A DNA stretch of 54,386 nucleotides, filler included, from Xylographa opegraphella (taxonomy: Eukaryota): assembly GCA_022813865.1 (NCBI GenBank). It is 10 parts of 10 records of this genome, joined end to end, with 100 filler letters (N's around TTAATTAATTAA, not from the genome) between each part and the next. Parts side by side here need not be neighbours in the genome. Positions count along the whole stretch, not along the records: positions 49,362 to 54,386 come from JALDZX010000241.1; 9 more parts are not named here. One strand, written 5' to 3'. The position numbers and the translations under genes were made by a program. Below the pieces are notes generated by a model. It did not search any database. It worked only from the letters and a program-made list of their open reading frames with translations, and was not told where the DNA came from. Positions 22,356-54,386 of the stretch are shown one piece after another. The number at the start of each line of letters is the position of its first letter. Position 1 is the first letter of the stretch.

Positions 22356-22415
22356 ATCGTCCACCTAAAGCTTACGTTCTAGGCGTGCTTGTGTGGTGAG
22401 TTGATGAGCCGTAAC
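22356..22415 (+). mobile_element. Partial LTR, family A
   Basis: Matches 1905-1964. Confidence 0.85.
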
Positions 22416-23137: not shown

Positions 23138-23327
23138 TGTTGAATTTAATCACTAGGCACAGGGGTTTTGGCAGCAGATAGCAGTGCATTGCTTAATCAC
23201 TAAGAAGGTGAAGAGTTCTCCTGAAGCGAAAGCTTCAGAAGACTCTTCGAGTCCTGTACTAAGCTAGTCCTAATTGGCTATAGTACAAGCCGACAACACA
23301 GGCTGCTAACCCCCTGGATTTTCAACA
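23138..23327 (-). mobile_element. LTR, divergent family E subfamily
   Basis: TGTTGAA...TTCAACA, colinear with 9898-10085 with many substitutions. No clear TSD. Confidence 0.85.
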
Positions 23328-24519: not shown

Positions 24520-27500
24520 AAGGTAATATAGTTCGAAATATAAAAACATTTTTCAATCTCGTTATTTCGCGTATTTAAAATACGTTAAAATAAAAAGTTT
24601 ATATAAAATAATTGAAATTTTATAGCCAATCGTCGTTCTATAAAATATTAACGATACTTACGAAATTTATATTTTTTTAAAGTTTCGAAATCAAAGAAGT
24701 TACGCCGTAAATAAATATAAATTTCAAATTTTCGTTTTAATTTTAATTAACATATATAAACTCTTATTAATATTTCGTGAAAATTATTTTTATTTTTATT
24801 TTATCGTAAATGATTATTTAAAAAAAAATTTAAAAAAAAATAATTAAATTAAAGGTTAAACGCGATCGTCGAGTGAAATAAATAAAAATAAATCGTAAAG
24901 TTTTAATTTAAAATAAAATTTATAATAATTTATAATAATAACGTTTTTAACTTTAAATTTATTTTGAACGATTATGAGTAAAAAAAACTGTCGATCGAAA
25001 AACAAGGTGCTTAAACCATAGATAAATATACATTTAAAATTTTCGATTGAAACGAAACTTAAAAAGAAAGACAATCAGCTGTTTTCATGTAAGAAAAAGA
25101 ATACGAAACTCATCTTAATTCCAAGCGATTAAATTAGTACGAACAAAAACAACGAAAAGATTAATACGCAGAGAAACATTATTTAATATCAAGAAGACAG
25201 TCCTTGGGTGGAAATCAATAACAACGAAGAAAGCGATTTAAACATTAATAGCCTGCAAGTCGAGAGGGATCTCAAGGAACAAAATGTCGAGCTAAACAAT
25301 CTCGATAATTAAATTTACAAAAAAACTGACGAGCAAAAAAAGCCGAAGGATACGGTAAATAATTACTAAAATTATCGAGTAAATCCAGAATATTCACGTT
25401 ACGATATAATACACTGTGGCACTTGTACAGGCATTTACTGTGTGACGGCTATGACATCAGTCACAGGTGATAGGGGTCGGGCTGGATCAGGACTCGCACC
25501 TTTAGTATATAGTCTCGCCCATGGAGCAGCCTCGCCGCTTCTCCATCTTAATCTGGGTTGAAATCGTCCACCTAAAGCTTACGTTCTAGGCGTGCTTGTG
25601 TGGTGAGTTGATGAGCCGTAACATACTGCAAAGTTCACTGAAAAAATCATGAGTACAACGGCCGCACAGGTAAAGCCTGTTATAAAATTTAAATTTGGAA
25701 CAGATGCTTCAAAAACGAATGCCCATGGCATTTAAAAGAAAAACGAAGGCATTTATCCTTTTTAGAATATATACAAGAATTCTGCAACAACTTAATTACG
25801 TACGGAACCCGTTTAGAAAAAAACAACTTCAGAAACCCGTTATGGCAATGGTATTTCCATGGAGAATATATAATATACATAGAGATCAAAGAAATTCACG
25901 GCTATCTCGAACAGGGAAAAAGTAATGTTATATATTATAGAAAAATATATAAAGATTAATATAATACACTTCAAGATACACCGGAAGAAGCCAGACTGTA
26001 TAAATTTTATAAAGATTTCAATTATTATAAATAATTATCGAACAACCGCGTTATTAGATATTAAAGCCAATTCAAATTATATGTTCAGCATTTTCGCGAA
26101 GAGCTGCGGCTTCGAATTATTAACTTTAAAATAGGTTCAAATGATCATGGCCGACGGGTCATCAAGGAAGGAAGAAGAACGATATATAAAATCACTTCCT
26201 GTCGCTATTCATTAATATCATAAAGAGATAGTTTTTGGTATAGTTACCATGGCCAGGTACCATATTATTTTAGGTTTATCTTGATGAATCAAGCACAACG
26301 TATCCCTAAACTGGGATAAAGGAGTATTTATCAAAAAGTATATCAATCGCGTTATTAATATATATTTTATACATCAACAGAGGACGATGATCAATAAAAG
26401 AAAGAATCGAAAACCGGTTAAAATTATAAAAATCTTATTTTCGAATAAAAACGATTTTACTCGAGAGTTCGACTTGACACGCATTAGCAAGGGTTAGTAA
26501 AACAAAATAAATTAAAGTTTGAAAAGAAGCGACGCACCTCTTGACATCCCTAAAGAATATAAAGCATGGATATGGCTTTTTCAGGAAAAGGAAGGATTTA
26601 ATACTTTATTTAAACATCAACCTTGGGACTGTGAGATCAATATCGAATCAGGGAAGAAGCCAACATTTGAATTTATATACAACATGTTAGAAAAAGAACT
26701 TCAGGATCTTCATAAATATATTGATAAAAGTCTGAAAAAGGGATTCATACGCGAATCAAAATCCTCAGCACAATATTCAGTAATATTTATATTTAAAAAA
26801 AACGAAAGCTTGAGACCTTGCATCGAATATCGGAAGTTAAACGATATTATTATTAAAAATCGATATTCACTACCGAAAATTAGCGAAATACAGAATAAAT
26901 TTAATAAAGTCAAAGTTTTTATTAAGCTCGACCTTAAAGGCGCATACAATTTAATCAGAATAAAAGAAAATAAGGAATAAAAAACTGTATTTCGAAGCAG
27001 ATATAGGCACTACGAGTATCAAGTTATACCTTTTGAATTAATTAACGCATTTATTATTTATTAGGCGCTGATCAACAACGTATTAAAAATGCATTTATAT
27101 TTAACGGTAATAATTTATTTGAACGACATATTTATTTACTCGGAATCAGCAGAGAAACATGTGAAATATGTACAGGAAGTACTTACATGCTTAGGAAAAA
27201 CAGAACTATTTCTTAAACAAGAAAAAGGCGAATTTAATAAAAACGAGATAGTCTTTCAAGAATTCATAATCGGCAAAAAAGAAATCAAGATGAATTTAGA
27301 AAAAATAAAAACTATACTCGAATGACCTTGACCAACAATAGCAAAAAAGGTCTTAAAATTCCTAGGGTTTGCAAACTTCAACTGAACTTTTATTAAAGAT
27401 TACTCCAAAAAGGCGATATCTTTAACGAATTTAACACATAAGAATATAAGCTTTAAATGGGATTCGAACTAATAACGAGCCTTTAACATTTTAAAAAAGA

Positions 27501-27857: not shown

Positions 27858-28313
27858 CATTGACTGTGAATTAATCGCTTAATTCTGTTTGAAATTTATT
27901 TAAATCGCTATAAATTTTGAAATTTCTATTTTTAATTTCGCGCAGATTTTAAAAAAGAAAAATTTAAAAATAAAATTTACGTAAAAGCGTTTAAGCGTTA
28001 AATAAATATTTTTCGTACGTTTGCTATAAATTGATCATAAATAATTATTAATATTGTAACGTTTTAAAATTGATTATGAATTATTTTAATCATATTTAAT
28101 TCCGGGAAACGATTAAAATTTATTAAAAAAAATTATTAAAACGCCAGATTATAGCTGTAAAGCGTATAATTATAATGAATTTATATATTATAAATATTAT
28201 ACGTTTATTATACGTTTATTATACGTTGATATTAATATGATTAAAATGGTTTAAAATATTCAAAAATTTGATAGAATAAAAAAACGTTTATTCGACAAAA
28301 ATAGAAAGGCTAC

Positions 28314-28568
28314 TGTGGTGGATTCGGGGCGGGTCTTTTGGGCGCTTTTTGATTTCGAGCTTCCTTCCTCACGCATCTACATATAGCGATAGAGCAGCAG
28401 AGCCACAACGGCAGTTAATTCGTTTTTTGTTCTTTTCACTCTCTGTCGGACGGATAGTGACCTTATTCAGAAAAGACTTGACCTAGCTGCGACCCCGATC
28501 CAATCCTTTTGCCTACCCCTTTGCCTACTCAACTAGGCTGCTGCGGACTTCCTACGAATTCCTTTACA
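28314..28568 (+). mobile_element. Solo LTR, family H (255 bp)
   Basis: Reverse complement of 31154-31410, 4-bp TSD CTAC. Confidence 0.92.
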
Positions 28569-31153
28569 CTACGACGCAGCCTTTTAATAATATTAACAAT
28601 AAAAATATAAAGAATATTATTAAAAAAACGGTTGAGATAAAGACAAAAAGGGCGAAAAAAACGATAATAAAAATTAATTAATTAATTTATATTATACGTA
28701 TATTTTTTATTTCTCGTACGCTCGCTAAATGCTGTAATAATTATATATCATAATTCTATAGTATTTTATTTATTTATATATAAATTTTTATAAAATTTTT
28801 TTAAATTCTTAATATAAAAGAAGCGTAAATTTGCAATGTTTTTTATACGATTTTTATAAGTTTACGTATTTTTCATTATTTATTATTGAATTATTGTTAT
28901 TATATGAAATTAAGGTATAATTTTTTTTAATTTTTTTAATTATAATATAAAATTTTAAAACTTTACGATAATTAAAATTATTAAGAACGATAAATAAACG
29001 ATAACGTATCTTCGTATATCGTACGTAAAATATAAATATATATTTAACAGTTTATAATCCTCGATTATAGTTATATTTCGGCGAAATTTAGTCGAAAATT
29101 TAGCGTATATATAAAAATACCATATAGATGCGTAAAAAAATTAAAATAGTATTTTTAATTTTTATTAATTTATTTTTAATAAATTATTTTTTAATATTTG
29201 ATTTTTTTATACTCGTTTAATTCTTGCTGGCATTTATTTTGTATTTAATAATTTTATTAACGTTTAATTTATAATTTTATTATTTAAATTTAAAATGATT
29301 TTATATTAAAAAAATTTCGTATTATTTTTTATACACGTTCCTGGCTTCGTTCGTATATATATATAATATACTTTTTTAATTTATAATATTTCTTTTAGGC
29401 TTGGCGACGACTTTTTTGAATTTTTTTTCGTAATTTTAACGTATTGTTCTCGCAGATTTTTTTAATATTGAATTCCCTTATTTTATCGATATTTCTTTCA
29501 ATTTTAATAAAATTAATCTTTATAAATATAAATTTATAAACGGAATAAACGATTTCGTTTTTAATACGTTAATTTTAATCGCGCGATACGTTTTTATAAT
29601 AATTTTTAAATATTCATTCTAAATAGTCGTTAATTTTTTATTTGTTATTTTTTTTTAAAATTCTTTTATAATTTTTAAATTATTTTCAACGATAAAATCG
29701 TAAAATTACATTACACGTATAACTATTAAAGATGATTATTTTGTTTTTATAAAATTTATAATTTATATTAACGTTAGTAGTTTATTTAAAATTAATTAAT
29801 AAATTGTTATTTTCTTTTCGATCTCGCGTAAATAAAGGCTTTATTTTAATTAATCGTTTGATTAAACGTTTAGAATTTTTATCAATACTTTAAAAGTAAT
29901 ACTAAATTGTTTTAAATAAATTAAAATTTGAATATTATATTTTTTTGAATATTTTTATAAAATATAAAACGTACGTTATATTTTCGTATTTATAATTCAT
30001 GTTTCCCGCGTATTTTTATTAATTTATTATAGTTATTATCTATATTATTTTTAAAAATAAAAATATTTCTATCCTTTACGAACTTTGCGATTTTACTTTT
30101 TTTATTTAATTACGTATAAATATTAATAAGTTCGACGTTAAAGAAAAGGATAAAATAAAGAAAAAAGTTTTTACGAAACTTTAAAGCGTATTTTAAATAT
30201 TTAAAATTTATATTTTAAAATTATTAAAATTATTTCTTTATTATTTAAATTTTATTTATTTATTTGATTAAGTAATTTGAAATGCGTTTCGGATTTATAT
30301 TATATAATAATCGTTCGAATTTTATATTATTAAAAACGGTTTTTTAATTTAAACAGAGTATTATAATTACTTTAGGTATGTTATACTTTTAAATAATATA
30401 TATTTATTTTATTATTGATTATAGCGTTATATTCGTGAATTTATAACGCCTCGTGTTTTTTAAAATTTTAAAAATAATATATTCGCTTTTGTTATATTGC
30501 TGATTCTGCTGGCTATTATTAATTCGAATATTCTAATTATTATGTTTAATAGCGTAATAAATTTACATATTTTTTTATTTTTATAACTCGTTTTTATTAA
30601 TTTATATAATATTATTGTTATAGCTTTTTTATATCTCGTCGAATATATTTTATACGTAATATATATATTAAATAATTTATATAAATAAAGGTTTAATATA
30701 TTTACTATAATTTTTAAAATTTTGTTAAAAGTTTAATTTAATTTAAACGCTTTTTTGCGTTTATTTTACGAATAATTTATTTATTTTATTTTATTATTAT
30801 TATTATTTATTTTAATACTTTAATTTTTAAATAAATCAATATCATTTTTGATATTTTTAAATCTCTTAACTTTGCTTTTCGAGGTTATCATAACTATATT
30901 ATTAAAATATAATTTTAATATTTATAATAATTTTAAAAGAGATATAGTTTTCGTATACATTTATTTAATTAGCTTCTAAATCTCTGTTAAGAAATTTAAT
31001 CTATTTTGGATTTTGTATTTAAAAAAAATCGTTTAAATAATAACCTTATTTTGATTTGTTATAATACAACGGTATTTAATAAAGTTTTCGTTATTAATTT
31101 ATATAAAATAAATTTTGCGCAATTTCTTCGTTTATTTAATTATAATTTTATAC
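28569..31153. repeat. AT-rich RIP-degraded repeat DNA, unclassified
   Basis: Very low GC, CpG-biased residual C, no ORF. Confidence 0.7.
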
Positions 31154-31544: not shown

Positions 31545-33114
31545 TTATCCCGAATCAGAGCTGTCATCGCCAGGGCTGTTCGAATCGTAGCTGTCTTCGG
31601 GGTCCTGGCTGCTGTCCTCACGTCGTATTAACGGAATGACTATCTTGAAGTTCGGGGATCCGTCCTCATCGTCGGTCTCACTCTCACTAAGATACTGCTC
31701 TTCCAGATCCGCCAGAATCGCCGCATATTCCTCTGCTGCTCCGTCTTTCCGCTCGACATGCAGCTTCAGCCTTCTCCCAGAGACGGTGCCGGACTTCTCT
31801 GCACCATCCAATTCTTGCAGACGATATACTCCCTTGACAGGATCCGCCTTGGTGATTCGGTACGGGCCTTGCCACCAGAAATCAAGCTTTCGGTCCGACG
31901 AATAGTCGTCCTTATACCTAGTATCGTGCAGAAGGACCAAGTCTCCCGCTTTGTATATCTTGTCCCTGGCATCTTTACTAACGTCGGAGTATTCTTTAGC
32001 TTGATCCCTTATCCTTCTAAGCCTCAAAGCTGCCTCCTCCAAGTCCAGATCTCTTTGCAATAGCTGCAGGGCTCTCAGCGCGAGCAGGTCGGCTGTATTT
32101 CGAACTCGACTCCAGGGTAGGCTGGTCCAACTAGGCACCTTGGCCTCGATCGGCAGCATACACACTCTTCCATAGATAAGCTGGAATGGGGTCATACCGG
32201 TGCTTCGGCGGATACTAGTTCGATCAGCCCATAGAACCAAATGTAATAGTTCTGGCCATGTGCCTATCCCTCCATGTGTCAGCTTCGCTAGCCCATCTAT
32301 AATAGGCTTGTGCCCTCTTTCTACCATGCCGTTCGCGCCCGGATTGTATGGGGAGGTCTGTATTCGCTCAATCCCATACAGTTTCAGCAGTGTCTCGGTA
32401 TACTTCTTGTTCTCTGGCCCTCCATCTAGAACCATCCTCCCAAAGAGCCCGTGGCGAGTAATAACGTCTTCCCACAAGAACTGCGCAACCGCCTTGGAAT
32501 CTGCGTTCTTGAGAGCCCTAGCTTCTACCCAGCCTGATAAATCTTCCCGGGCGACCACTATATAGCCCAACCCTCTTCTCCGCGGCATCTTGACCACGTC
32601 CACGGCCACCTTTTCGAACAATATCTGGCTATGCGTAGCGAAGATTGCATCCGGCTCCAACTGTGAAGACCTTCGCTGACAGTCTTCGCAGGATTTGCAG
32701 TAGGCCTTGCAGTCCTTATACAATCCTTCCCACCAGTATGTAGCGGCTACCCTTCGATATGTGGTTTCCACACCCTTGTGTGCTCCGCCTACATCATGCT
32801 GGCTGGCGACAATCTCCTGCTGAACTTCCTCTTTATCTACCACTCGTCGCAAAGGTATGTTCTTACTGCCCCGTCGAAACAACTCCCCATCTCTTACCAG
32901 GTATTTCAAGGCTTCCGCTTTGAACTTCGTCCACTGACGGCCCTTATACTGGGTCGGCTTCTTCAACGATGACAGCCATACAGCATATTCCTCATGGATC
33001 TCTGAATACCCAGAGTCCGGATTCAGGACAGTGACCCATGGTCCTTGGCTGTCGCCCTCTCCTTCCTGCCTTTCCTCAGTGGCCGCCACGATCAGACTCA
33101 AAGAATGCACCCCT
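31545..33114 (-). CDS. Ty3/gypsy pol C-terminus: integrase (HHCC + DDE + GPY), uninterrupted, 5'-truncated
   Basis: QHDVGGAHKG...CEDCQ, VAVDVV, VLDGGPEN, NGMVERGH, WQGPYRI. Acidic tail with no chromodomain. Confidence 0.95.
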
Positions 33115-33214
33115 NNNNNNNNNNNNNNNNNNNNNNNNNNNNNNNNNNNNNNNNNNNNTTAATTAATTAANNNNNNNNNNNNNNNNNNNNNNNNNNNNNN
33201 NNNNNNNNNNNNNN

Positions 33215-33276
33215 CTTCACCGAATATACGATTACTGTTGCCCCCGCCCTGATCCAAATACACGTGCCTTTTAATA
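33215..33276 (+). mobile_element. Partial LTR, family B
   Basis: Reverse complement of 36879-36940. Confidence 0.85.
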
Positions 33277-36200
33277 TTTATAATTATTTTCAAAATTCTC
33301 GATTTTCATCGAAAAGAATAACTTTAAACACTTTTAAATAAAATAAATATAATCGATTTACTAAAGTTATAATTTATATTTTGCTATTAATAATTATTTT
33401 CTTTAGAAATAACTATAATAATTTTATTGAATTTATAAATTACTATTATCGCGCAATTATACTTATTTTAAAATAACTTCGATAAAATCAATGTAAAATT
33501 AATTATTAATATATTAAAAAGTCTTGAAGAAATCAGAATTAATTATAATAAGTTATAAGGTTTGTATTAAAATACTTAATAAAATTCATATCATAAATAA
33601 TATCAAATATATACGTATAAATCTTTGATTATAATCAAAATATATAAACTTTTAATTAATTTTTAACATATACGATCGTATTTTTAACAATTTAAAATAT
33701 TATAAACGAATTTAAAGGTATTTTTTAACTATAAATATACAAATATAAAAACCAAAATTTTACTCGATATCCTTAAAATAAATTAAAATTTTAATTCAAT
33801 TTTATTATTTTCAATTATCTTTCAATGAGTATTTATCGCAAACTTTGCAAATATTCTTTATTAAATTTGTTTTAAAGTTATCGTTTATTTATATTATAAA
33901 TATTCAATATGTCGATACGAATTTAACTGTATAAATAAGAATTAGGATTTTTTTTAAATATTAAATCGCGTTAAAAAATTTTTTAAAATAATACTCTATG
34001 TCGTAAATTATTTGAAAACGTAAAAGTCTAAAAATGTATTTAATATAATATTAAATTTGCAAGGTTTATATCGTACGTTAAAGTTAAATCGTGAAAAATA
34101 TTCTAAAATCGTATCAGTTTAAGATTTAATATTCTAATAAATATAATATTAAAATTTATTTATTTAAATATTTAATACGTAATGAAGTAATTAATAAATA
34201 TAATTATCGATAATTTTACGAATTTTGTTATATATTACAATTTTCTAACGATTTATATTAAATCGGAAATCTTCAATTTTGTTAATTAATATTTATATTT
34301 GAATTCAATAATAAATAAAAATAAAAACAATAAAATTATTTTTTACTTTAAAAAATTCGTGTTATTAATTATTGATTTAATAGCACAACATGCGTAAACG
34401 CCGTATTTGATTTATATAATAAATTTATATTAATATATAATTATCGTTTAGCCATAAAATACATTAATATTAATAATTTTAAAAATAATTTTTAAATTTA
34501 AAAAAACGCTATTAATTTTCTGAATATGAATACTATAATCCCTAATTTAATAAACAATTTTTTATAAATTTTCTCAACGATTTCTGCGATATTTTTTATA
34601 TAAATTTAATAAAAATCGTTTTTTAAAATTATAATAATTAAACCATTATTACGTAATAAAAAGTATATTACCGTAAATAATTTATTAATTTTAAATAATA
34701 TTTGAATAATTTTAATGATCGCGAAAATATTAATTATAATATTATTATAAACTTTTTCTTTACGATCGCTAATTTCAGAGCGTTACTATATTAATTAAAA
34801 AAGCCATTAAAATATTTTAAAAAAAATTTATTAAATAAAACGCATATATTAAATGACGCAAAAAATTTAGAAATTTCGTTAAAATATTATAAATACTTTT
34901 TTAAAAAAATTAAAAAATTACAATATCATTAACGTAAATTTTTGCAAACTTGCGACAGAAAAATTAAAATTTTATTAATTATTTTTCATATATATATCGA
35001 AGAATTTCTATATTTTATTATCGTTATATAAAAAATCTCTTGGCCTTTATAATTGGAAATTGTCGAACGATATTTATATACTTTTCTTATTAATTAATAA
35101 TAAAAAACGAACATACGTTAATAAAAATAATATATATAACGTTATTTATAGCCACGGGTATTTTCGCTTAAAAATATTAAATAAATATTTAATACCGTAA
35201 TTTTATTTACGGTTTAAATATTAATTATTATTGTATTTTTATTTTATATACTCTGATTTTTCTAAACCACAAAATATAAATAGCGAAATAATATAATATA
35301 TTTTATTTTTCAAGTATATAATTTATCGAAGATTCTATCAATAATAGTATAATTTCGTTGTTTTATTACATGTATTTTAATTTATTTTAATTTATAGTAT
35401 TTCTTTCAGTTATTTATTAAGGGTATAATTATTTATTTAAATTTAGGCACGTCCGCAGTATTTCCTTTATTTATTGAAAAATTAAAGTACTTCGTCGCAG
35501 TAAATTCTAAAAATATAATAATTAATATATTATTATAAACTATAATTCCGTTCGCAAGTTTATATTTTTAAATTATTAAAAATAAAATTATTTTTAAAAT
35601 AATAACGTTAATTAGCAGTATTATTACTAAGAGACTTTTTTATGATTTTTTAAAATATTTCGATTTCAAAGATTTTGATAAATTTACGATAAATTTTATA
35701 TTATTTAACGACGTTTTAATTATTATTATAAAATCTTTATTTATTTTGTATTTTACTCCGTGTTTGATACGTATATTTCGTGGTAAAAAAATATTTATAT
35801 CAAAATCGTTTTATACGAAAACTAGAAATATATTGAAATTAATAATATAAACAAATATTAATAATGGCTATCGAACTTTATTCGATTCGAAAAGAAATCA
35901 CGATTTTAATGAAATTAAATCTTTTTTTATTATTTTTAATAAACACAGCTTGGCGAGTATAAAACGATGTATTCGTTTTTAATTTATTAATTAAATAAAT
36001 CTCCCGTTTAATACAAATCGGTTTGTTATTATTGCCTTTAAAAAACATATTAATAATAATTTATTCATTCGCTGTATAATTGAATGAGTCAATACTACGA
36101 ACCTTTATAAATATAAATATTATTTTAATTGTTATATTAAAACAACTCAAAAGAAATTTTTATTAATAAAATTTATAATCTATTTTATATTTAAATAAAT

Positions 36201-36878
36201 ATTCTTTTTTCGTTAATTAAAAAGCCCAAGCTAATTTTAATCGTAATATGTCGTCAGTTTTTCAACTTAAAATGTTTAATCTAATAATTTATTAATTAAG
36301 AAGTTTTTTTTCGTATATTTTTTATTTAACAAAAAATATTTTATGAATTTTTGTTCGATAGAAAATAATTATTTCGTATCAATTTTAAGCGGCTTAATAT
36401 ATAAACTTTGGCGAACGTATTAATAAAGTTTATTTAATAAAAAAGGGCAATCTACATTTTTTATATTTATAAAATTTAATAATATTCGCCGCAAAATTAA
36501 CTTTCATTTTGATATGCTTCTTATTATTATTTTGACTATTTTCGTTATTATTATTGTTATAATAATTTTCATCCTGGAAATTATTTTTTTAATAATAAAT
36601 TTTTAATAAATTTTATACAAATTATTATCGTTTTTAACAATATTATTAAAGGTTTTAACAAAATAAACCTTTTAATAAAACTTCTTTAAGAAATTATTTT
36701 TATTACTTTTTAAAAATTAAGAATTTTCATTTTCTTCTTCGAATTTTTATTTAATTGATAAATTTTAACTTTTATTTTTTATTAATATCGTTTTCTAACT
36801 ATTATAATTACGATTATTTTTAAAAATCGATTTTAAAAATCTCAATAATTTGACGAAAAAAATTGAAATAAAAAAAAC
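33277..36878. repeat. AT-rich RIP-degraded repeat DNA, unclassified
   Basis: Very low GC, CpG-biased residual C. Confidence 0.7.
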
Positions 36879-37069
36879 TATTAAAAGGCACGTGTATTTG
36901 GATCAGAACGGGGGCAACAGTAATCGTATATTCGGTGAAGTTCGGTATAGGCCACGAGAACGTGACATATACCTCCTACGCTAGTACTGAACTACGCTAT
37001 ACATAAATAGAACTAGCCTTCAGGTATTCCTTTATGCCTACCAGCAAGTGATGCTTCTACCAATTAACA
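36879..37069 (-). mobile_element. Solo LTR, family B
   Basis: Colinear with 4234-4424, TSD AAAAC. Confidence 0.92.
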
Positions 37070-37086
37070 AAAACTACGATTACCAT

Positions 37087-37216
37087 ATTTATTTCTTTTA
37101 TTTATTTCTTTTATTTATTTCTTTTATTTATTTCTTTTATTTATTTCTTTTATTTATTTCTTTTATTTATTTCTTTTATTTATTTCTTTTATTTATTTCT
37201 TTTATTTATTTCTTTT
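37087..37216. repeat. 13-bp tandem repeat (ATTTATTTCTTTT) x~10
   Basis: Direct reading. Confidence 0.95.
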
Positions 37217-38454
37217 CGATTTTTAAATTTATTGATATATATGTTAAACCATTTATACTTTTAATCTGCAATACATTTGGTAAACCTATTTATAGTAGTT
37301 GCAAATATTATAAAAAAATTATTATTTTTTAGAATATTATTTAAATATTAATAAACCAATAAAACCTGAATATAATTTATTATAATAATATTTGTATTTT
37401 TGTTAGAAACTACTTTTATCCCCAGCGTGGCAGTATATATTTACGTAATACTCAAGATTATTATTTATTTTAATAAAAAAGTTAAATACTGACCGAGAGA
37501 TGCGCGAAACGTAAATAAAAAATATAATCGCAATAATTAAATAATAATAACAAAATATAATAAAACGTAAAGTTTTTATCTTTATAATTAAAATATAATA
37601 ATAATTGCAATATATGTAAAATACACATTCAACGTTGTTTTAATATATAAAAAAATATATATAAAACATAAAAAACGAGCTCTGTCTCAAAATAAACGAG
37701 TGTCGCTGAAACTACGCGAAATAATCGATTAAAAATTACGTAAAATAACTAATCGTAAAAGGTTATATTGTTTAAAACGTAAAAAGTTAATAAAATTGTT
37801 TCAATAATCGCTTAGCGTAATTAAAAAAACGAGATTTTTACCTCGATGTCGAATTTTGCGCAGCGTTTATTATCGAATTCACGCGATTTTAACTCGCGAT
37901 TTGTGTATAATAAACATAAAGTATTTAAAATAATCGATTTTAAAAGGCTATAAAAATTTTAAACGTAAAAACCGTTTATTTTAATAGTCGTTTGACGTAG
38001 CCGGGAAAAAACGCGATTTTTATTTAAATTTCGAGTTTTAAAGCCTCGCTTCGAGTTTTATATAAATATAAAATTAAATAAAAAATGAATAAAGGTATTA
38101 AATACGACTCGTATACGATTTTACGACGTATATTAATTTAATATTATTAGTATATAATAAATCAATATTTAATATCGTTAAACGCAAATTAGCTATTAAA
38201 ACCCAAACCCTTTTGAATAAAAGTATAGAATGCGCAGGATTAATATTCTATTAAATTCGAAAAAAAAACGATTTTAAAAGCGGGCTTTGTAAAACGTGAA
38301 AAAATTTAGGGAGACGAGGGTAATTATAATAATATAATATTAATAAATTATATGCAGGTCAAACGTACGAAAGACGTAAAAGAATTACGAATTCTTATGT
38401 TTTTTAACGGCTTTTTCGTTTGTATATATATATAAAAACAGATTTTTCCCGAAC

Positions 38455-40947: not shown

Positions 40948-43837
40948 ATATCAAAATTTTTATCCTTTTTTAATATTATATTTTGTAATAATTCAATTTT
41001 ATATTGAAAAAAATTCATTACGCGTATATCGTGTTATAAAATAATTATTATTTTTAAATATATAATTTATGAAAAATTAAATATTAAATTTTAAAAATTA
41101 AAAATTTTATATTTTATATTTTCTGCCTTCGGCGCAATTATTCCTGCGATATAATTTTTTTTCGAAATCGTTTTTTCGTAAAATAAATTAAAAACGTAAT
41201 CGTTTAAATAAATAAAATAGTTACTTTTTTATTTTTTTTTTTACAAAAAATCGTTTATTGAAACAAAAGCGTTTTTTTATTATTCGTAAAATTAAAAAAA
41301 TATTTTTAAAATTTAAAAACGTAAAGAAATTATAAAAATTACAAAATATACAATCGATTTTCTTTTCGCGAAGTTCGTTAATTTTAATAATTTTTAATTT
41401 GATTTTTTCAAGGTCGAGTTCGTTATTTTTAAAACATCGTTTTTTATAAAAATCGATATTTTTTAATGATATTGTTTAATAAAAAATTTGTATTTATTAA
41501 GGTTAATTTTCGATCTTTATATATTTTTGTCACGAGTTCTGGGTTTTGAATTTTAACCTGATTTATGCTTTTTTTTGCTTTGTTTACACATTTTAACGAG
41601 CCATTATATAATAAAGTTTCTCCTTTTCATAATTACGATTCAGCTTTTTCATATCATTATATAATTATAAATCCTGTAATCAGGCGTTTACCTCACAAGT
41701 AATAACATTAATGTTATTCAATTATTCAAAACACCAGAGATAATTCATTTATTTTATAAGTTAAAAGATTTAGCCCTTCAGCGAGTAATTATTTTACAAA
41801 TCAAATTTAATATTATATCGCAAAAATCTTTGCTTATTCTTCAATTTTTTATTTACTTTATAAACATTAATACATTTGTAATGTTCAATAAATAATGTGA
41901 CTTTTTTATTTTTCCGAAAAATAAACCCTCAATTTATATTATTAAAAACATTTTTAATAAAATCTTTTACATTCATCGTAACTTTTTCGATCGAAAACGC
42001 TGCAATAATTCAAGTTTATTTTTATTTCGAAGCTTTTATTAAAATCGATTATTAATTTATTTCATACCTTATATTATCCTTTAAAAATTTATTAAACAAA
42101 TCACGATTAATAACGTTAAATTTATTAATTTTTAATCAAATTTTTTTACATCAATTAATTTTATAACCCCATTTCAAATAACACGAACAAAATTTTTAAT
42201 TTTTAATTTAAAATCAAAATTAAGCTATTAATAAAATAGCTTTTAAATTCGACGTAAAAATATTCATCGAAATTATTTTATATTTATTATTGATATTTTT
42301 ATAAAAAAATTGATATTAAAAAATTTCATTATAAGTTTTTAGTTTTTTTATAAATTTTATTATTTTCATCAATAGTCGATTAAATACTCGTAATAAAAAA
42401 TGACTCGAAAATTAAACATACTCAAATTCTTTAATACCTTAAATATAAAAATATATAAAATATAAACGATAACAGGTATTAAAATATCAAATTTAATAAA
42501 AATTAGTAAAAAAGGTTTTAAAATTTATTAATTTAATGTATATAAATTTTTACTTTATTAAATTTTTTTAATTCCCTCGATTTGTCTGGCCCAGCTAATT
42601 AAAACGATTAAAATAATGAAAACGAAAGTAAAATTTATTCAAAATTAATAGATATTGATTTATTTTATTTAAATATACCAATAAATTAAAGAGAAAAAAA
42701 TATTATTAACAATTTTAAAAAATTACCATAAAAATATTTAGAATTTTACAAAGCGATTATATATCGTAGTAAATACTAAAAATATAACAAAAATACGATA
42801 GAATTTAAACATATATTTTTATAATAAAGTTGAACTATAATAAAATACTTAATTTAATAGAATTATAAAACTCGATTTAATAGCTTATTTAAATAACGTT
42901 AAAAAAATTAAAAATTGTAAACGACTTTTTGAATCGTTATTAAATAAAATTTTTCACAAATACGTTAATACGCGTTATATTATAAAAATATACAAAATCG
43001 CCGTTATTTTATAAAATATATTAATATATTTATTATTATTACGGAAAAATATAATTAAAACGAAAATAAATTTAAATTCGTAGTTTGCGTTTAAATATAT
43101 ATTAATCTATCCTTACAAAAATTATTAAATGAATTAAACATTAATATTATTATATAAATATTTCCTGAAACCTTAAAATCGAAATAAATTAATAAATTTA
43201 ATAAATATAAATCTTTAAATCGTTCGCAGTTAAGCAATCAAATTTAGCCTAAATTTCACTTTAAATATAAATAACATCAAGGTTATTTCAATTTTTTAAA
43301 AGGTAATTTTCAGAATAATTTGAAAAATTCTAAAAATTCTCGATTACCTTTTTAGGGTTATTTTTTTATAAAATACTTTTTAACCTTTTTTTTCAATTTT
43401 TTCAATTCTTTTTTATTTCAACGTTTTTTAATTCAAAGTAGCTTAGTAGCCACGGCAATCATTATTATTTATTTAAAAGAATACGTCAAATCATTAACTT
43501 TAATCTTAAACTTTAAGTAACGCAGTTAAAAAATTATTTATTAAATTAAAACGGCTATTAAAGTGATTACTAGTCTTTAAATCAGCGATTAATAATTTAT
43601 TATAATAAAAACGCTCAAAATACGAGAAATATTTAATTGACAGCGATTAATATTAAAAAAACTTAAATAATAAATAAACTTAAGTTTATTATAATTAAAA
43701 TTATTACGAAATCTATTATAACCAGGGCTATTACGACGCGTAAAATAAACAGTTACATAATTTTTTAGAGTAAAATTTTCATATTTATTTAAATAATATC
43801 GAAGCTTTGATAAAAAACGATAGATTCGCGGCATATT
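40948..43837. repeat. AT-rich RIP-degraded repeat DNA, unclassified
   Basis: Very low GC, no credible ORF. Confidence 0.7.
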
Positions 43838-43905
43838 TGTCACGATCCTGCCTCTCACTAGTATAGTTCGATTAGGGATCTGGGTTGGATTCGTCAATGA
43901 GTAGA
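43838..43905 (-). mobile_element. Partial LTR, family C
   Basis: Matches 48548-48616. Confidence 0.88.
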
Positions 43906-44005
43906 NNNNNNNNNNNNNNNNNNNNNNNNNNNNNNNNNNNNNNNNNNNNTTAATTAATTAANNNNNNNNNNNNNNNNNNNNNNNNNNNNNNNNNNNNNNN
44001 NNNNN

Positions 44006-46049: not shown

Positions 46050-47060
46050 CTATACCGTCTGAGTCGACTCCGCAACCTTCTCGCCCTTGTCCTTGACACT
46101 CGTTCCCACACCCTTTTTCTTCCCCTCACTACTCCGGCTCTCCAGATCGGCCGTGAAGCGTTTCCACAACTCGGCAACGTCCTCTTTTCTCTTGGCCGAC
46201 TTTTCCACCACGAGGTTGCGTAGCCATTTGTTCTCCATCTCCAGCTGCGTGATCCGTGCCTCTAGAGCGTCTGCCCGATCGGTCATCTCCTTGGCTGTCT
46301 TTTCGAGCGCTTGCTCGCGCTGCTTCTTCTTGACTCGGAACCGGGCAGACGCGGCAGTGTTGCGACGGCGCTTGTCTTCTTCAGCAGCAGCGCGGGATGA
46401 GGCTTCGAGAGAGGGAGAGGTCGGTGTCATGGAGGTTGCCGAGAATGGACGCTTGTCTCCCGTGTGAGGTGGCTGAGAAATACCGTAGGGCGAAGTTGGG
46501 TTGCCAAAGGCCGTAACATCGAACGGGGAAGGAGCGACATAGTTTGTGTCGAGAGGCTCTGGCAGTACAGTGGTTGGATCTGTAGCAACGAACGGAAGGT
46601 CTGGGAATTGATAGCCATCTGAAAAGAGCACATCAGCTTCAGTATCTGTATTATGCTCAATTCTCTCAGTGGCTGAGTATTCACAGCTTGTCATGGATCA
46701 AGATAAATCTGCGCGCCATGCCGCAAAGAATAGAAGTAATGATGGGCGCATGTTGGATTAGAAAAATGCATCGAAAGGAGAGCATGTGAAGCAGAGCGTA
46801 CACCCACCATTGCCATAATCTACAGCCTTCGTGTCATTATTCTTAGGAGCAGTTCCTTGTTTTGCAGGCTCTTCCAAGCTCGGATCGTAATTCTCCCCCA
46901 AATCAAAATCGAAGAACTCGGCATTGGTAAAGATTGCAAGGTCGTCATCGAGGGGAAAGCCATCCTGCCCGGTCGCAGTATCGTGGGCCGAGGGTATGGT
47001 GTTCAGATTGGCAATGTACTGGGAGACATTGGGAGCCTTCCTGGCACTGTAGCAAGACAT
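46050..47060 (-). CDS. metR: bZIP sulfur-metabolism transcription factor, CYS-3/MetR orthologue. Exons 47060-46808, 46618-46050, 273 aa
   Basis: SLEASSRAAAEEDKRRRNTAASARFRVKKKQREQALEKTAKEM...LEMENKWL matches the CYS-3 bZIP. N-terminal RKAPNVSQYIANLN. A 189-nt GT-AG intron keeps the frame. Confidence 0.92.
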
Positions 47061-49261: not shown

Positions 49262-49361
49262 NNNNNNNNNNNNNNNNNNNNNNNNNNNNNNNNNNNNNNN
49301 NNNNNTTAATTAATTAANNNNNNNNNNNNNNNNNNNNNNNNNNNNNNNNNNNNNNNNNNNN

Positions 49362-50840
49362 CAGAGGAAGAGAAGGCCCTCGTTACGTTTCTGTTACTAA
49401 TGTCTGATCTTGGGCAACCTGTTCGAGTAAAGTACATACCTTCACTAGCCTTTAGCATCGCCCGCCAGCGGTCTTTCGTTACAACGGATCATTCAATCAA
49501 GCCTCCGAATAAGAACTGGCCTCGAGCCTTTGAGAAACGTAATCCTGAACTCAAAGCGAGAAAGGTTCGGGCGATAGATTGGAAACGTCACGAGAATAAC
49601 ATATATGTGAAAATTACACACTGGTTCGAAGTAATTGGAAGAATTATACAGGATCCGGCCATTCTGCAAGAAAATGTGTACAATATGGACGAGACGGGGG
49701 TCATGTTAAGCATGCTCGGTTCCGTCAAAGTCCTTGTAGGTAAGAACGACCTACGAGACTATAGAGGCGCAGGCGTCAAGCGGACGATGGTAACTGCCAT
49801 TGAATGTATAAGTGGAGACGGCAGGTCTTTGCTCCCTCTTATAATCTGGCCAGCTTCAACTCACCGCAGCAATTGGACGACATACCCAACCCCAGGATGG
49901 CATTACGCACATTCAGAAAACGGTTACAACAATTCCAAAATTAGCTTGGAATAGCTTACGCGTGTGTTTGATCCCCAAATCAAAGGACCAGCTAACCAGA
50001 GACCACGGGTACTAATTTACGACGGCTTCGAGACACACGAGACGCTCGAAATCTTGGAATTTTACTTTGCGAATAATATTCTCCTGTGTCGTCTCCCGTC
50101 TCATACCTCTCATAAGCTCCAGCTCTGTAATGTCGGAGTTTTTGCGCCTTTGAAGACAGCCTATTGCGACGAGGTTGAACAACTGTACCGAGGAGGTTTA
50201 GACACCGTTGGCAAGGAGCATTTCACCTTTTTATACAAGCCTGCAAGGGAAAGGTCGTTAACAAAGAGAAATATTATGGCCGAATGGCCGCGACTGGTTT
50301 TTCCCGTTCAATCCAGAGAGAGTACTCCGATATACACCGAAGCCCGCTGCTATACTTACAGTTCCAAAAGGTAATGAGGTCTTGTCTTACCCGCAAGACC
50401 AAGATCTACAAATGCCTGTAACCCCTGTAACGTCGGTAACAATAGAGGCTCTTACGTCGTTGCATAATCTGATTAAACAGGAGCTTGATGAGCCAAATAC
50501 AGACTGTATACAAAGGCACGTACAGAAGCTCGTAAGTGCCGCCAAAGTATTATTTGCCAAACAGACCCTCTTTTAGGATCAGAATCGATTCTTGTCCAAA
50601 TTAAATAATGAAGCCAAAGTTCGCCGATCGACCAGATCAGTAGTTCTGGGAAAGGCGAAGGTGATAAGCTATAAGAACCTTGAGGAGGCACGAGCGAAGC
50701 GTGCCGCAAAAGAGAAAGCGACAGCGGATAAGGGCAGGGGAAAACGCGGGCGTAAGCGCAAAAGTCCTGCGCCAGAGGAGGGTTCGTCAGTGCCAACGGA
50801 CAACGAAATGCTGGAGTCAGTGAAAGCCCCAGCGCCATAA
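49362..50840 (+). pseudogene. pogo-type DDE transposase, disrupted
   Basis: NKNWPRAF, NVYNMDETG, VTAIECIS, RVLIYDGFETH, LPSHTSHKLQLCNVGVFAPLK. Stops at 49952 and 50574, frameshift near 50285. Confidence 0.92.
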
Positions 50841-51251
50841 AGGGCCCCAGTGGCACGAATATATTAGGACAGTATTGTTGCTTCAACGTGATCTTGCGCT
50901 GGGAGTTGCATAGGCTATATAGGAAAAGAGAATAAATGCTTAACTTAGCAAATTATGGAAGAAAGCTGGGCTACAGCCAAAGCATGCTAATACACGTTTT
51001 ATTGCCAGTGCCATCCAAGCCGAACAAAGAGAACATTTTATCACTATATCGAGAAGGTTAAATGCGGAGATTGTGGCGTGGGCTCCTTTGAAACGTCGTT
51101 GCAAGTAGGTATATATAGCCAGCGTCATCGCATCGTTTTCAAGTGATACGCGGAAGGTTCTCTAGATACCACGTACATTGTTGGACAAACAGATCAAGCT
51201 GAAGAAGTCCTTAAACCACAAAGAGATTCAGATCGTTCAGTGATGCCATAC

Positions 51252-52082
51252 CTAATCGTCCCAAAAATCCTTTCCGCCATACTTGTTGCCAATAAGAGCT
51301 TTTCCATCATCATCCACCACCACGCCGTTATATATATAAGACGCCCCTACCGCCTTCCCATACCAGTCACTGCTAAAAATGTCACCAGCCTAAGCCTTTT
51401 CTTTAACTAATACGTTCAGGTATCGATGACCACTAAGAGCTTCTTTGGCAGCATTTTGCAGTAGGTTATCAATACCTTCTGCAACACTCTGAACTAACTC
51501 TAGGGCTCCTCGATCATGAAGTTCAGTCGCTTCCTGCCTGACCAGTAAAACCTGGGCTTGAGGAGCAGGGAATATTTTCTCGATGTTGTCAATAAGTGAA
51601 GAGATACCTTCAATAAGGCTCTTGAATTCGGATTTGCGATAAAGAGCCCATTGCGTGATTTTCAGGATATTACTCCTCTTCTATCGCTTGATAGCCAGCT
51701 CCCTCATCTTGTTGTTCAACGCTACGAAGGTTGAGTCCATACTATTACTGAAAAGAACAGAAAGGTCTTCGCCAGTTGTATACTGCTGTAAAAATTTTGC
51801 CGAATCGGCGAAAAGCATAAGGATCTGATACAATATATTTTTAACCGTCTGAATCTGTTCTGATGTCGCATCGGGCCTTCCCATTTTCGGATCGTTCAGA
51901 ATATCCACAGCTTGCCCTCAACGGGTCAAACGGATTCGAGAGCAGTTCAGAGTCAGCAAATCTATCTGATAGTCTCGCCCAAAGTGACGCCCAAACTGCA
52001 CATACTCGAAGCAATCGACACAGGCCGTGAAGGCGGCAGCGATGCTGACAGCACCAGCGACAATGCCAAATGCTTCAGCCAT
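51252..52082 (-). pseudogene. het-S: HET-S homologue (HeLo domain + C-terminal prion-forming domain), 276 codons, three premature stops
   Basis: Starts MAEAFGIVAGAVSIAAAFTACVDCFEYVQFGRHFGRDY, ends GKALIGNKYGGKDFWDD (Podospora HET-s ends VLIGNEYGGKGFWDN). Single frame with stops at 51918-51920, 51681-51683 and 51390-51392. Confidence 0.93.
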
Positions 52083-52405
52083 TATAATAGTGTAACAGGC
52101 AGGTGCTTTAGCCAGACGATATGCTCTAAACAGCAAAGAAGATCAGAAAATGGTTAGATTGCTTGCTGTAAGTAAAATTGTCTGCAGAATCGCGTTTGAT
52201 TGCTCTAAGAGCACAGTTTGCTGCCTAAGTCTATCCGAGGTCCTAGCCTAGCCGTAGCCTATCACACCAGAACAAGGCCAGCGCGAGCCGCTCCTACTGT
52301 AGGCCTTGTTTAGAGAATACTATAATCTTAGCAGTCAAGCCGACCGGCATGTCCGCCTAATTGTCAATGCTGCTTCCAGCGGCCACTAACTGATCCGTCG
52401 CCTCA

Positions 52406-54386
52406 ATGGCTGATCCCTCCAGGCCAGGGAATCAATACCAACACATTCGGATCGATCAAGGCGGGAAAGCTCAACTGGGCGACACGTATATTCTCCGTGA
52501 GCTTTCGCATCCCATCCGAGAAGTGATATCTGCTGACATACGCACGTCTCCTTGATCAGCGGCTCCAGCCCCTCCGTTACCTCCATCCTATCGACTTGGC
52601 TTAAATCTTGAAGATGCGCCGCAGATTGACGAGCAGCTCTTCGTCGGACGAGAGGACGAGCTTGCTCATCTACACGAATGGTTGTCTCCGTCAACGGAAC
52701 GACAGAATGTGGTGGCCATCTCGGGACTCGGAGGGATGGGTAAAACACAGCTTAGTCTGCACTTTGCGCGACAACACCATCAACGCTATTCGGCTGTGAT
52801 CTGGCTGAATGCCAGCAGCGAAGTCACGCTAAAGGCGGCATACATGTCTCTCGCGCAGCGCATCCAACGCCACAACAAGCAACGCGAGGCTGGACAGAGC
52901 GAGGTGATAGTGCAATTGAAGGAAGAGCAGGCTATCCAACTGGTTCGACAGTGGCTGTCACAAGCGGAGAATAAGACGTGGTTGTTGATGTTCGATAATT
53001 ACGATGATCCACGGCTTCCTGGCATTCGCAGCAGCACTGGATACGACATTCGCATTTTTTTTCCCTACTCCACCCAAGGATCGATCCTGCTCACAACCCG
53101 ATCTTCTCGCATTACCTTTGCGAAGTCGGGACGCCTTAACAAGTTCGATGACCTCAATCTGAGTCTGGCAGTTCTAACAAGGCGATCGGGTCGACAGGCA
53201 CACGAAGGTAAGTGTATATGGTCACTGGGGATCAATACCGACCTTGTATCTAACGACCTCTGTTGCTTAACCCAGATATAAATGCGAAGAAACTGGCGGA
53301 ACGGTTTGACGGACTTCCATTAGCGTTGGCCACGGCGGGCGACTATATCCGTCAGACGGCGGATTCGTTCGGTGAATACCTTCAAATGTACGAGCAGAGC
53401 TGGGCAGACCTGGCCGAGAACAGTGATAACTTGATGGAGTACGGCGATCGAACGCTGTATTCGACATGGAATCTATCGCTAAAGCAGGTCGCCGCTCAAG
53501 ATCCTGAAGCGGCAAAGCTGGTTCGGCTGATGGGGTATCTGGGCAACACGGATCTGTGGTATGAGCTGTTTCAGAAGGGTGCAGAATCCGCGCCGGAGTG
53601 GTTCTGCAACATCACGAAAAGCAAAGCGCGATTCAATAAAGCAATGGCGACACTGCACGGTTATTCATTGATTGAAGCGATGCCAGGTCACTACAGTCTT
53701 CACGCGTGCGTGCATGACTGGGTTTTGGAGTATCTGATCGGCAAGATCGATATAACGCTATTTGGCTTAGCGATGCATTGTGTTGCGCAGAATGTTGCTT
53801 GGGATACTACGCCCGAATACTGGGTGGTCAACAGCCGTTTAAACCATCACGCTCTTCGAATCGAGCATTGTCATCAAAGGGACGTTGTCGATTGGAACAT
53901 TGTCGATATGGACGATATTTTTAATATAGGTTATTTGAATTATATGATCGGGAGACTGAAAGAAGCGAAGGAGATGTATGTGCGGGCGCTGGAAGGATAC
54001 GAGAAGGCATGGGGTGCGGAGCACACATCGACGCTGAGCATGGTCCACAACCTGGGGAATCTCTACGCGGATCAAGGCAAGATGGCCGAGGCGGAGAAGA
54101 TGTACATGCGGGCGCTGGAAGGAAAGGAGAAGGCATGGGGTGCGGAGCACACATCGACGCTGAGCACGGTCCACAACCTGGGGAATCTCTACGCGGATCA
54201 AGGCAAGATGGCCGAGGCGGAGAAGATGTACATGCGGGCGCTGGAAGGAAAGGAGAAGGCATGGGGTGCGGAGCACACATCGACGCTAGAGACGGTCAAC
54301 AACCTGGGGAATCTCTACAAGAATCAAGGCAAGATGGCCGAGGCGGAGAAGATGTACATGCGGGCGCTGGAAGGAAAGGAGAAGGC
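52406..54386 (+). CDS. Fungal NLR: N-terminal amyloid motif, NB-ARC, TPR repeats. Exons 52406-52496, 52560-53207, 53276->54386 (3' end outside the window)
   Basis: FVGREDEL, P-loop GLGGMGKTQL, Walker B LLMFDNYD, ILLTTR, GLPLAL, LHACVHDW, 42-aa TPRs. Two phase-1 GT-AG introns with branch sites give a continuous frame. Confidence 0.93.
53950..54386 (+). repeat. Near-identical 126-bp TPR-coding tandem repeats
   Basis: GAGAAGGCATGGGGTGCGGAGCACACATCGACGCT recurs at 54001, 54127 and 54253. Confidence 0.96.

Follow-up and report, generated by a model that had tools for sequence, protein, structure and literature searches.

A divergent NLR/HET-S-type amyloid-signalling locus with a broken effector gene in an assembly of Xylographa opegraphella

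Here, we analyzed a stretch of 54,386 nucleotides of Xylographa opegraphella (GCA_022813865.1; hereafter the window), which consists of 10 parts of 10 records joined end to end with 100 filler letters between neighbouring parts. A divergent gene pair fills the last 3.1 kb of the window, within the part taken from JALDZX010000241.1: a HeLo gene on the minus strand and, on the plus strand, a gene for an NB-ARC-TPR protein of the NOD-like receptor (NLR) type. This locus is, with good confidence, a member of the NWD2/HET-S class of amyloid-signalling cell-death modules, in which the effector is broken and the damage would be of the type that repeat-induced point mutation (RIP) leaves behind. An initial annotation of the same DNA had proposed a HET-S-type effector head to head with an NLR whose N-terminus bears a corresponding R0 motif, and domains, motif profiles and conserved pairing all bore this out. 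It had also taken the two genes as a matched receptor/effector pair, and a working pair had to be given up here because the effector is dead (three stops, changed invariant residues and a directional C>T/G>A footprint). Labels beginning with L denote metagenome-scan loci (n=64), those with P protein homologues and those with X sequencing runs.

The divergent pair and its amyloid motifs

The coordinates confirm that the HeLo and NB-ARC-TPR genes lie head to head across a 323-bp spacer. The effector open reading frame (ORF) is a single minus-strand frame of 276 codons from the ATG at 52082-52080 to the TAG stop at 51254-51252. The translated repeats R1 and R2, the GGKDFWDD tail and R0 were the same as those first described, and one boundary was corrected, in that NLR exon 2 ends at 53207 and intron 2 spans 53208-53275. 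The features of the locus are as follows.

51252..52082, minus strand: HET-S-type effector gene, 276 codons plus stop, pseudogene (X-masked translation, Pfam HeLo, orthologue comparison)
51495..52067, minus strand: HeLo domain, residues 6-196 (PF14479, E 1.2e-41 in the translation with X at the stops)
51918..51920, minus strand: stop 1, codon 55, TGA, Trp in orthologues (G>A in the window lineage, polarised against L024 and L001)
51681..51683, minus strand: stop 2, codon 134, TAG, Gln in orthologues (polarised as C>T)
51390..51392, minus strand: stop 3, codon 231, TAG, at R1 motif position 17 (polarised as C>T)
51378..51434, minus strand: R1 amyloid pseudo-repeat, residues 217-235, 19 residues (2-residue gap against the 21-residue motif)
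51282..51344, minus strand: R2 amyloid pseudo-repeat, residues 247-267 (R2 profile, E 9e-12)
51255..51281, minus strand: C-terminal tail YGGKDFWDD, diglycine plus aromatics (translation, orthologue alignment)
52083..52405, no strand: divergent spacer, 323 bp, presumed shared promoter region (between effector ATG and NLR ATG)
52406..52496, plus strand: NLR exon 1, 91 nt (30 codons + 1 nt), encoding R0 (ATG at 52406)
52424..52486, plus strand: R0 motif, residues 7-27 of the NLR (gapless match to the R2 profile)
52497..52559, plus strand: NLR intron 1, 63 nt, GTGAGC donor, CTGAC branch point, CAG acceptor
52560..53207, plus strand: NLR exon 2, NB-ARC (E 2.8e-12), P-loop GLGGMGKT at 52724-52747
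53208..53275, plus strand: NLR intron 2, 68 nt, GTAAGT...CTAAC...CAG
53276..54386, plus strand: NLR exon 3, remaining nucleotide-binding oligomerisation domain (NOD) module and TPR repeats (TPR_10, E 2.8e-30), continuing past the window end

Relatives of the effector at E up to 0.001 numbered 289 among 1453 candidates. The closest, P0005, is an intact orthologue of 276 residues with 88% identity, and the named top homologues come from lichen-forming Teloschistaceae (Gallowayella, Flavoplaca, Variospora, Xanthoria and others). A profile built from 18 members of the family matched the HeLo structures of HET-S/HET-s (2WVO and 2WVN) at E about 1e-59, and positions 234-280 of the same profile aligned to the HET-s prion-domain structure 2KJ3 (E 0.0022). 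Residue 33 of the HeLo domain, the position that sets het-s/het-S specificity (PMC3321046), is His, as in the HET-S chain 2WVO (GRHFGRDY); 2WVN has GRPFGRDY. The C-terminus runs from R1 (217-235) through an 11-residue loop to R2 (247-267) and the tail YGGKDFWDD. HET-s-related amyloid motifs (HRAMs) have been defined by two 21-residue repeats with Gly at position 19, hydrophobic residues at 5, 8, 10, 16 and 18, Arg or Lys at 15 and a loop of 6-18 residues (PMC4518210). The effector repeats follow this pattern in the position-19 glycine, the hydrophobic positions, K15 and the loop of 11 residues, the key residues being Y5, V8, V10, K15, A16, I18 and G19 in R2 and Y5, V8, V10, K15, A16, A18 and G19 in R1, the latter with its 2-residue gap. 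According to the same source, motif position 3 is His in HRAM3, Asn in HRAM1 and Gln in HRAM2, with a blurred border between HRAM1 and HRAM3 (PMC4518210). R1 has His at this position (H219). In R2 all 17 orthologues have it as well, and in the window a C>T change has turned it into Tyr. The His-at-position-3 rule thus indicates a predicted assignment to HRAM3; supplement 2 of that study carries no subfamily labels.

Exon 1 of the NLR encodes MADPSRP followed by GNQYQHIRIDQGGKAQLGDTY, with N3, Y5, I8, I10, K15, A16, L18 and G19 in HRAM numbering, and matched no Pfam family. Hidden Markov models (HMMs) of R1 and R2 were made from homologue C-termini with the window excluded (101 of the 120 listed homologues end in W[DE][DEN]; 86 distinct R1 and 91 distinct R2 sequences), and with both we searched every one of the 2321 stop-to-stop ORFs in the window. 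The best match of the R2 HMM was the R2 of the window itself (E 9e-12). It was followed by the exon-1 ORF (E 0.0039), aligned without gaps over profile positions 3-21, in line with the gapless alignment of R0 to R2 in the initial annotation; all other ORFs scored above E 2. The R1 HMM also matched the exon-1 ORF (E 0.0085). Since this ORF was the only non-self match of the R2 profile in 2321 ORFs, the resemblance between R0 and the repeats is more than chance.

Two further comparisons addressed R0 and its partner directly. For the six pairs in which both motifs were complete, R0 shared on average 7.0 of 21 residues with its own R2 and 6.5 with R2 of the other pairs; a sum as high as the observed one arose in 96 of 720 permutations, so co-evolution within own pairs was not significant among these six. 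Two loci were left out of this test, L009 (R2 cut) and L019 (inverted duplicate). The latter, a contig of 1227 nt, has an identical R1+R2 coding stretch at 127-183 (minus strand) and 1045-1101 (plus strand), which is probably a palindromic assembly artefact. A complex predicted without alignments for residues 214-276 of P0005 and the window R0 peptide scored 0.01 against a mark of 0.34, which speaks neither for nor against binding.

Loss of the effector and its mutation footprint

The effector was said at the outset to be interrupted by stops, and three of them are indeed in frame, at codons 55, 134 and 231. Among 17 aligned orthologues, Trp55 and Gln134 are found in all, and position 231 is Gln in 15 and Leu in two; at this third site a contig of a relative in run X14 has plus-strand CTG, that is, CAG for Gln (its loose end is at 51374). 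Changes in the window also affect the orthologue-invariant residues T40, V204, G228 and H249, and altogether six of the 77 columns that are invariant in the 17 orthologues are changed. For comparison, exon 2 of the NLR has no stop and differs at 3 of the 119 columns invariant among 10 orthologues, a rough comparison because these 10 are closer than the 17 of the effector and the two sets differ in depth. This effector copy is a pseudogene, and its ORF cannot give the protein; the NLR, as far as its 5' part lies in the window, is conserved and intact.

The changes in the effector were strongly directional. Relative to nine close orthologues, 19 residues are private to the window. Of these, 13 require one C>T or G>A substitution, and such a substitution could also account for 2 others. 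Nucleotide changes were then assigned to lineages with L024 (86% protein identity) and L001, with or without L002, as outgroups. The counts by region and lineage are given below.

HeLo region, window lineage: C>T/G>A 43, T>C/A>G 8, transversions 12
HeLo region, L024 lineage: C>T/G>A 19, T>C/A>G 19, transversions 6
HeLo coding sequence only, window lineage: C>T/G>A 34, T>C/A>G 6, transversions 8
NLR 5' half, window lineage: C>T/G>A 16, T>C/A>G 14, transversions 6
Downstream 51000-51251, window lineage: C>T/G>A 7, T>C/A>G 8

The excess was significant for the HeLo region of the window against that of L024 (Fisher p 0.0009) and for the HeLo coding sequence against the NLR 5' half (Fisher p 0.007), and the C>T/G>A changes polarised in this way include those at all three stops. 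CpA context was found at 21 of 46 changed sites compared with a background of 160 of 549 (29%; p 0.013). In addition, C>T/G>A changes comprised 21 non-synonymous and 13 synonymous ones, compared with 3 and 11 for other changes (p 0.024). As the other changes were mostly synonymous and the C>T/G>A changes mostly non-synonymous, it appears that the gene was constrained and then received a burst of unselected hits. Sequencing runs provided a further view of these sites. In run X1, which is probably the source of the window itself (88% of the sampled words of the stretch), 51000-54093 is represented twice with the same coverage (depth about 165-195 for each version); the first version is identical to the window and the second differs from it by 7-11%. 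At all seven of the C>T/G>A sites listed for these runs, the ancestral letter is found in X4 (about 95% identical) as well as in the second X1 version, and it is also seen in X14 (five of the seven) and X20 (three) where these runs cover them.

Based on these results, we lean towards a RIP-type C>T/G>A burst, confined to the effector gene and probably linked to the second version of the locus, as the cause of the damage. RIP and large RIP-affected regions have been reported in Xanthoria (bioRxiv 10.1101/2025.11.25.690456), and low-GC blocks with retroelement remnants also make up much of the window. A related metagenome assembly contains two R0-bearing NLR paralogues that are 86% identical, and these paralogues together with the two X1 versions make a duplicate substrate for RIP plausible. 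It should be noted that several observations speak against such an origin. By the classical RIP indices, the HeLo coding sequence falls in the unaffected range (TpA/ApT 0.72; (CpA+TpG)/(ApC+GpT) 1.42), so that any RIP was light. The footprint ends at the edges of the effector, with 7 versus 8 changes in 51000-51251 and 16 versus 14 in the NLR 5' half, and such a limited footprint is a poor fit to RIP if the duplication had covered the entire locus. Moreover, instead of being a paralogue, the second X1 version could stem from a different genotype or species within the sample, and no second copy of either gene was present in the window. Leakage of RIP from a neighbouring DDE transposon remnant was also considered and is not favoured, the nearest stretch (51000-51251) being unbiased (7 versus 8).

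The alternative that survives best, tenable and clearly the less probable of the two, is that the effector decayed by neutral mutation after loss of function, with the usual GC-to-AT bias and no need for RIP. The normal RIP indices, the lack of a duplicate in the window and the sparing of the flank and of the NLR would all fit such decay, as would the fact that one or the other partner is broken differently in relatives (by a frameshift in L024, by a deletion in L002). However, neutral decay does not readily account for a ratio of 34:6 in the coding sequence when the HeLo region of L024, whose effector is also broken, shows 19:19. It also sits poorly with the 3 non-synonymous to 11 synonymous other changes, which suggest constraint along most of the branch, against 21:13 for C>T/G>A, with the preference for CpA (p 0.013), and with X4, which at about 95% identity keeps the ancestral letter at the sites listed. 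The RIP-type burst therefore remains our preferred explanation.

Much less credible is that the pair works as encoded and that the stops are sequencing or assembly errors or are read through. In its favour, the orthologues and the NLR are intact, and the effector gene is covered by RNA-library contigs of relatives, of which one skips a GT..AG segment on the effector strand; also, the stops are known from one assembly, and the sole run with identical contigs, X1, is probably its source. Nevertheless, the gene has three independent stops, in each case one transition away from the conserved codon, in addition to the changes at T40, V204, G228 and H249. The identical X1 contigs have a depth of about 170, even if X1 is probably the source of the window, and there is no sign of an altered genetic code, as the NLR and other genes of the window read normally under the standard code.

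As a separate observation on the 3' end of this gene, the RNA-library contig of a relative in X14 skips 51199-51251 (53 nt), right after the stop codon and with GT..AG ends on the effector strand. The skip was not seen in the DNA contigs of X1 and X4, and the segment looks like an intron in the 3' untranslated region of the HeLo gene.

Conservation of the pair and the receptor body

The pairing extends well beyond the window. Effector and NLR have adjacent locus tags in three annotated relatives, and the 30-residue R0 exon peptide was matched divergently upstream of the HeLo start in 16 of the 64 metagenome loci; many of the remaining 48 are short or distant. The distance between R0 exon and HeLo gene is 210-470 bp in 15 of these loci, and L001 has a 2.6-kb Tc5/pogo transposon between the two. 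Glycine occupies motif position 19 in 16 rows of the corresponding 17-row alignment. A DNA contig of X4 is collinear over both genes, and the spacer varies among relatives: X4 has ~122 additional letters there, and in the second X1 version 98 letters are replaced (52218-52232). Damage is also common. In L024 (6001-6823 and 4724-4909) the effector is frameshifted after about residue 96, and the match to the NLR ends 62 residues into exon 3; in L002 (5236-5899) the NLR lacks exons 1-2 and abuts an intact effector; in L001 the transposon splits the spacer and both genes are still open. These three are metagenome contigs, in which single errors are possible. Thus, the pair is conserved yet often damaged.

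The receptor itself has NB-ARC (PF00931, E 2.8e-12) and TPR_10 (E 2.8e-30) domains, in agreement with the proposed TPR sensor in place of WD40 repeats, and its TPR end in the window consists of 126-bp tandem units (53965-54386; 3.3 copies, 95% matches). This body is shared by the window, L024, L001 and Teloschistaceae proteins. Seven more distant loci were scanned, of which five have NACHT (two with WD40 ORFs behind it), one has WD40 only and one has ankyrin repeats. Across related loci the R0 partner is mostly NACHT-WD40, and NB-ARC-TPR is the Teloschistaceae version. Fungal NLRs are described as being assembled combinatorially (PMC3321046, PMC9815663), and the exchange of the body behind R0 fits this picture. 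A side observation concerns P0140 (source name Endocarpon pusillum), a more distant NB-ARC-TPR relative 50% identical in exon 2, which starts with a Gly/Asn/Gln-rich stretch (...NQGHALYIGGNQTAQGNINYYY...) that may be another amyloid-type motif.

Comparative evidence supports R0 as a micro-exon of the receptor gene. The donor, CTGAC branch point and acceptor of intron 1 are all kept in L024 and L001, as are the splice signals of intron 2. Relative to these two loci, exon 1 carries indels of 30 nt and 6 nt, both in frame, and intron 1 has a frame-breaking indel of 2 nt. Read without splicing, the frame of exon 1 meets a stop at 52553-52555. Among the 10 closest NLR orthologues, 7 start with R0, 2 have other N-terminal regions and 1 is a fragment, which together with the splice signals and the indel pattern supports the micro-exon model first put forward. 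The gene models of these orthologues are predictions and not RNA, and they give different first introns: the splicing proposed here is found in P0126 and P0127 and nearly so in P0128, and P0130, P0132 and P0133 are spliced otherwise. Automatic annotation is not consistent in its treatment of the micro-exon, with two or more splice models among these 10 orthologues, and NLRs given in lichen genome papers as lacking an effector domain may therefore hide amyloid motifs.

RNA evidence, which the initial annotation had looked to for the intron at 52497-52559, was partial. In X20, a biocrust metatranscriptome, contigs of a relative join ...CACGAAG to ATGTCGATGCGAAG... over intron 2 (loose ends 53207 and 53282), and another X20 contig fits from exactly 52560. 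Use of the intron-1 acceptor at 52560 was thus seen in a relative, and the joint between exons 1 and 2 was not. Before 52560, this second contig carries 164 letters ending in ...GGTCGACTATCATATC, which are unlike exon 1 and could not be placed in frame; they could come from a paralogue with another first exon, from a different reading phase or from a chimeric contig. The exon 1-exon 2 joint is accordingly a predicted one, supported by comparison alone.

Some results count against an R0-bearing receptor of the HET-S class. First, the joint of exons 1 and 2 was absent from the RNA contigs of the four runs examined (X14 has no cover at 52130-52800), and the lone RNA contig that uses the intron-1 acceptor carries other upstream sequence. 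Second, R0 has Asn rather than His at position 3. Third, the HET-s_218-289 family (Pfam PF11558), against which the motifs were to be scored, matched neither the effector nor NLR exon 1 at E up to 10. It should be noted that PF11558 matches just 38 of 155 published HRAM proteins and misses 117 (PMC4518210), and so does not define the wider family. That the likeness of R0 is due to chance, or that exon 1 lies outside the NLR transcript and the receptor has no amyloid motif, would suit the shortness of the motif, the joint not seen in RNA, the differing upstream sequence of the X20 contig and the unmatched PF11558, but is hardly believable given a profile match unique among 2321 ORFs, the same exon at the same place in 16 related loci, one open frame shared by this exon and a NACHT domain in L004 and L045, in-frame indels in exon 1 against a frame-breaking one in an intron with kept splice signals, and R0 at the start of 7 of 10 orthologue gene models.

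Proposed mechanism, surroundings and comparison with known systems

For the intact form of such a module, the mechanism is established in the NWD2/HET-S system of Podospora anserina, and by analogy the locus of the window may be read in the same way. Binding of a ligand by the TPR repeats would lead the NB-ARC-TPR receptor to oligomerise, and the N-terminal R0 motifs gathered in this way would form a beta-solenoid-like nucleus. This nucleus would template the R1/R2 prion-forming domain of the neighbouring HET-S-type protein, and the refolding might free the HeLo domain for insertion into the membrane, with cell death as the outcome. The copy in the window could not kill as encoded, its effector being a pseudogene, and its NLR may be an orphan that is heading for decay or that signals to an effector encoded elsewhere. 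A bolder scenario, which we offer as speculation and consider rather improbable, is that the whole R0-NLR/HET-S module was duplicated in Teloschistaceae, that RIP disabled one pore-former and spared the receptor, and that the orphan sensor now signals in trans. If this were true, two sensors would feed one executioner, the remaining HET-S copy. On the same speculative view, the frameshift in L024, the loss of the NLR 5' end in L002 and the split spacer in L001 would suggest that lichen-forming fungi repeatedly rewire or shed this pathway, and the R0 micro-exon, bounded by the conserved intron, would be the unit moved from a NACHT-WD40 to an NB-ARC-TPR body.

Little is added here to the mechanism itself, as NLR/HET-S signalling, the HRAM subfamilies and mixed NOD/repeat types are all in print. 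What the locus offers is, first, a Teloschistaceae HET-S orthologue with an exchanged receptor body, which is NB-ARC-TPR in this lineage and NACHT-WD40 in relatives further away. The exchange took place at the conserved intron that directly follows the R0 micro-exon, a concrete case of an NLR assembled from parts. Second, the effector appears to have been silenced by a gene-sized C>T/G>A burst beside an intact receptor, the mirror image of het-s/nwd2 in Podospora, which makes the locus a small natural experiment on the fate of an orphaned partner.

The remainder of the window consists largely of low-GC blocks with copia, gypsy and DDE remnants. Blocks of 15-25% GC lie at about 5000-10000, 12000-16000, 22000-25000, 28000-31000, 33000-38000 and 41000-44000, with (CpA+TpG)/(ApC+GpT) of 0.63-0.84, and look like large RIP-affected regions. 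Retroelement fragments lie between or beside them (gag 3110-3613, RVT_2 10096-11235, RVT_1 26516-26977 and integrase 31548-33158), and GC-normal islands hold gene fragments, namely bZIP_2 at 46053-46697 (minus strand; E 4.4e-12) and HECT_2 at 17527-18123 (plus strand; E 1.6e-47). Nearest to the pair is a DDE_1 (pogo/Tc5-type) transposase remnant at 49310-50374 (plus strand), reaching to about 50840, with an in-frame stop at 49952-49954 and a second part matched by Pfam at E 6.2e-14. It lies about 400 bp beyond the effector 3' end, and the spacer of L001 is interrupted by a transposon of this type too.

That the class of system is known, as the initial annotation had stated, holds for NLR/HET-S amyloid signalling, for the HRAM family and for the effector family itself, two orthologues of which are in print (PMC4518210). 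These are P0087 (Amorphotheca resinae Amore1_33010) and P0092 (Oidiodendron maius Oidma1_134549) of the 2015 HRAM set, which are 57-61% identical to the effector and whose last 80 residues are letter-identical to entries in supplement 2 of that study. The alignment in supplement 2 places a 2-residue gap in motif 1 as here, shows the same tail and lists an r0 on a neighbouring NLR for Amore1_33010 (PMC4518210). As both proteins are listed there, the effector family is already part of the published HRAM data set. Both examples are from Leotiomycetes, whereas the window lineage belongs to, or is close to, the lichen-forming Teloschistaceae and has an NB-ARC-TPR receptor and a broken copy. With regard to lichens, Table 1 of the same paper lists Cladonia grayi with HRAM2 and HRAM5 motifs (PMC4518210); our limited literature search found no description of an NLR/HET-S pair in lichens, and the word 'amyloid' has 0 occurrences in the Xanthoria parietina preprint.

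Two other kinds of NLR resemble the receptor of the window in part. HeLo-like/NB-ARC-TPR pairs with a PP motif were described from Arthroderma in 2012 (PMC3321046). They are likewise two-gene amyloid-type pairs whose receptor combines NB-ARC and TPR; unlike the window pair, they use the PP motif, which is not HET-s-related, and a different effector subfamily. The all-in-one NLRs P0135 and P0136 (Coleophoma) and P0129 (Brigantiaea) are 54-86% identical to the NLR of the window from exon 2 on, with homology that begins a few residues or less from the boundary between exons 1 and 2. They differ in that a long N-terminal domain (PF05057/DUF676 in P0136) replaces the R0 micro-exon, and a separate effector is not implied.

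The closest parallel is the NWD2/HET-S pair of Podospora anserina, which shares with the window divergent neighbouring genes, a HeLo effector, a prion-forming domain of two repeats and a tail of diglycine plus aromatics. Like the NLR of the window, NWD2 has a single N-terminal R0 and no effector domain, and HET-S, like the window effector, has His at HeLo position 33 (chain 2WVO). The two systems differ in the receptor, which is NB-ARC-TPR in the window and NACHT-WD40 in Podospora, and in the motif, which is HRAM3-like in the window (His at position 3, R1 two residues short, PF11558 unmatched) and canonical HRAM1 in Podospora. They also differ in which partner is lost. A transposon has knocked out nwd2 in all het-s isolates analysed (PMC3321046), so that the broken partner is the receptor in Podospora het-s strains and the effector in the window.

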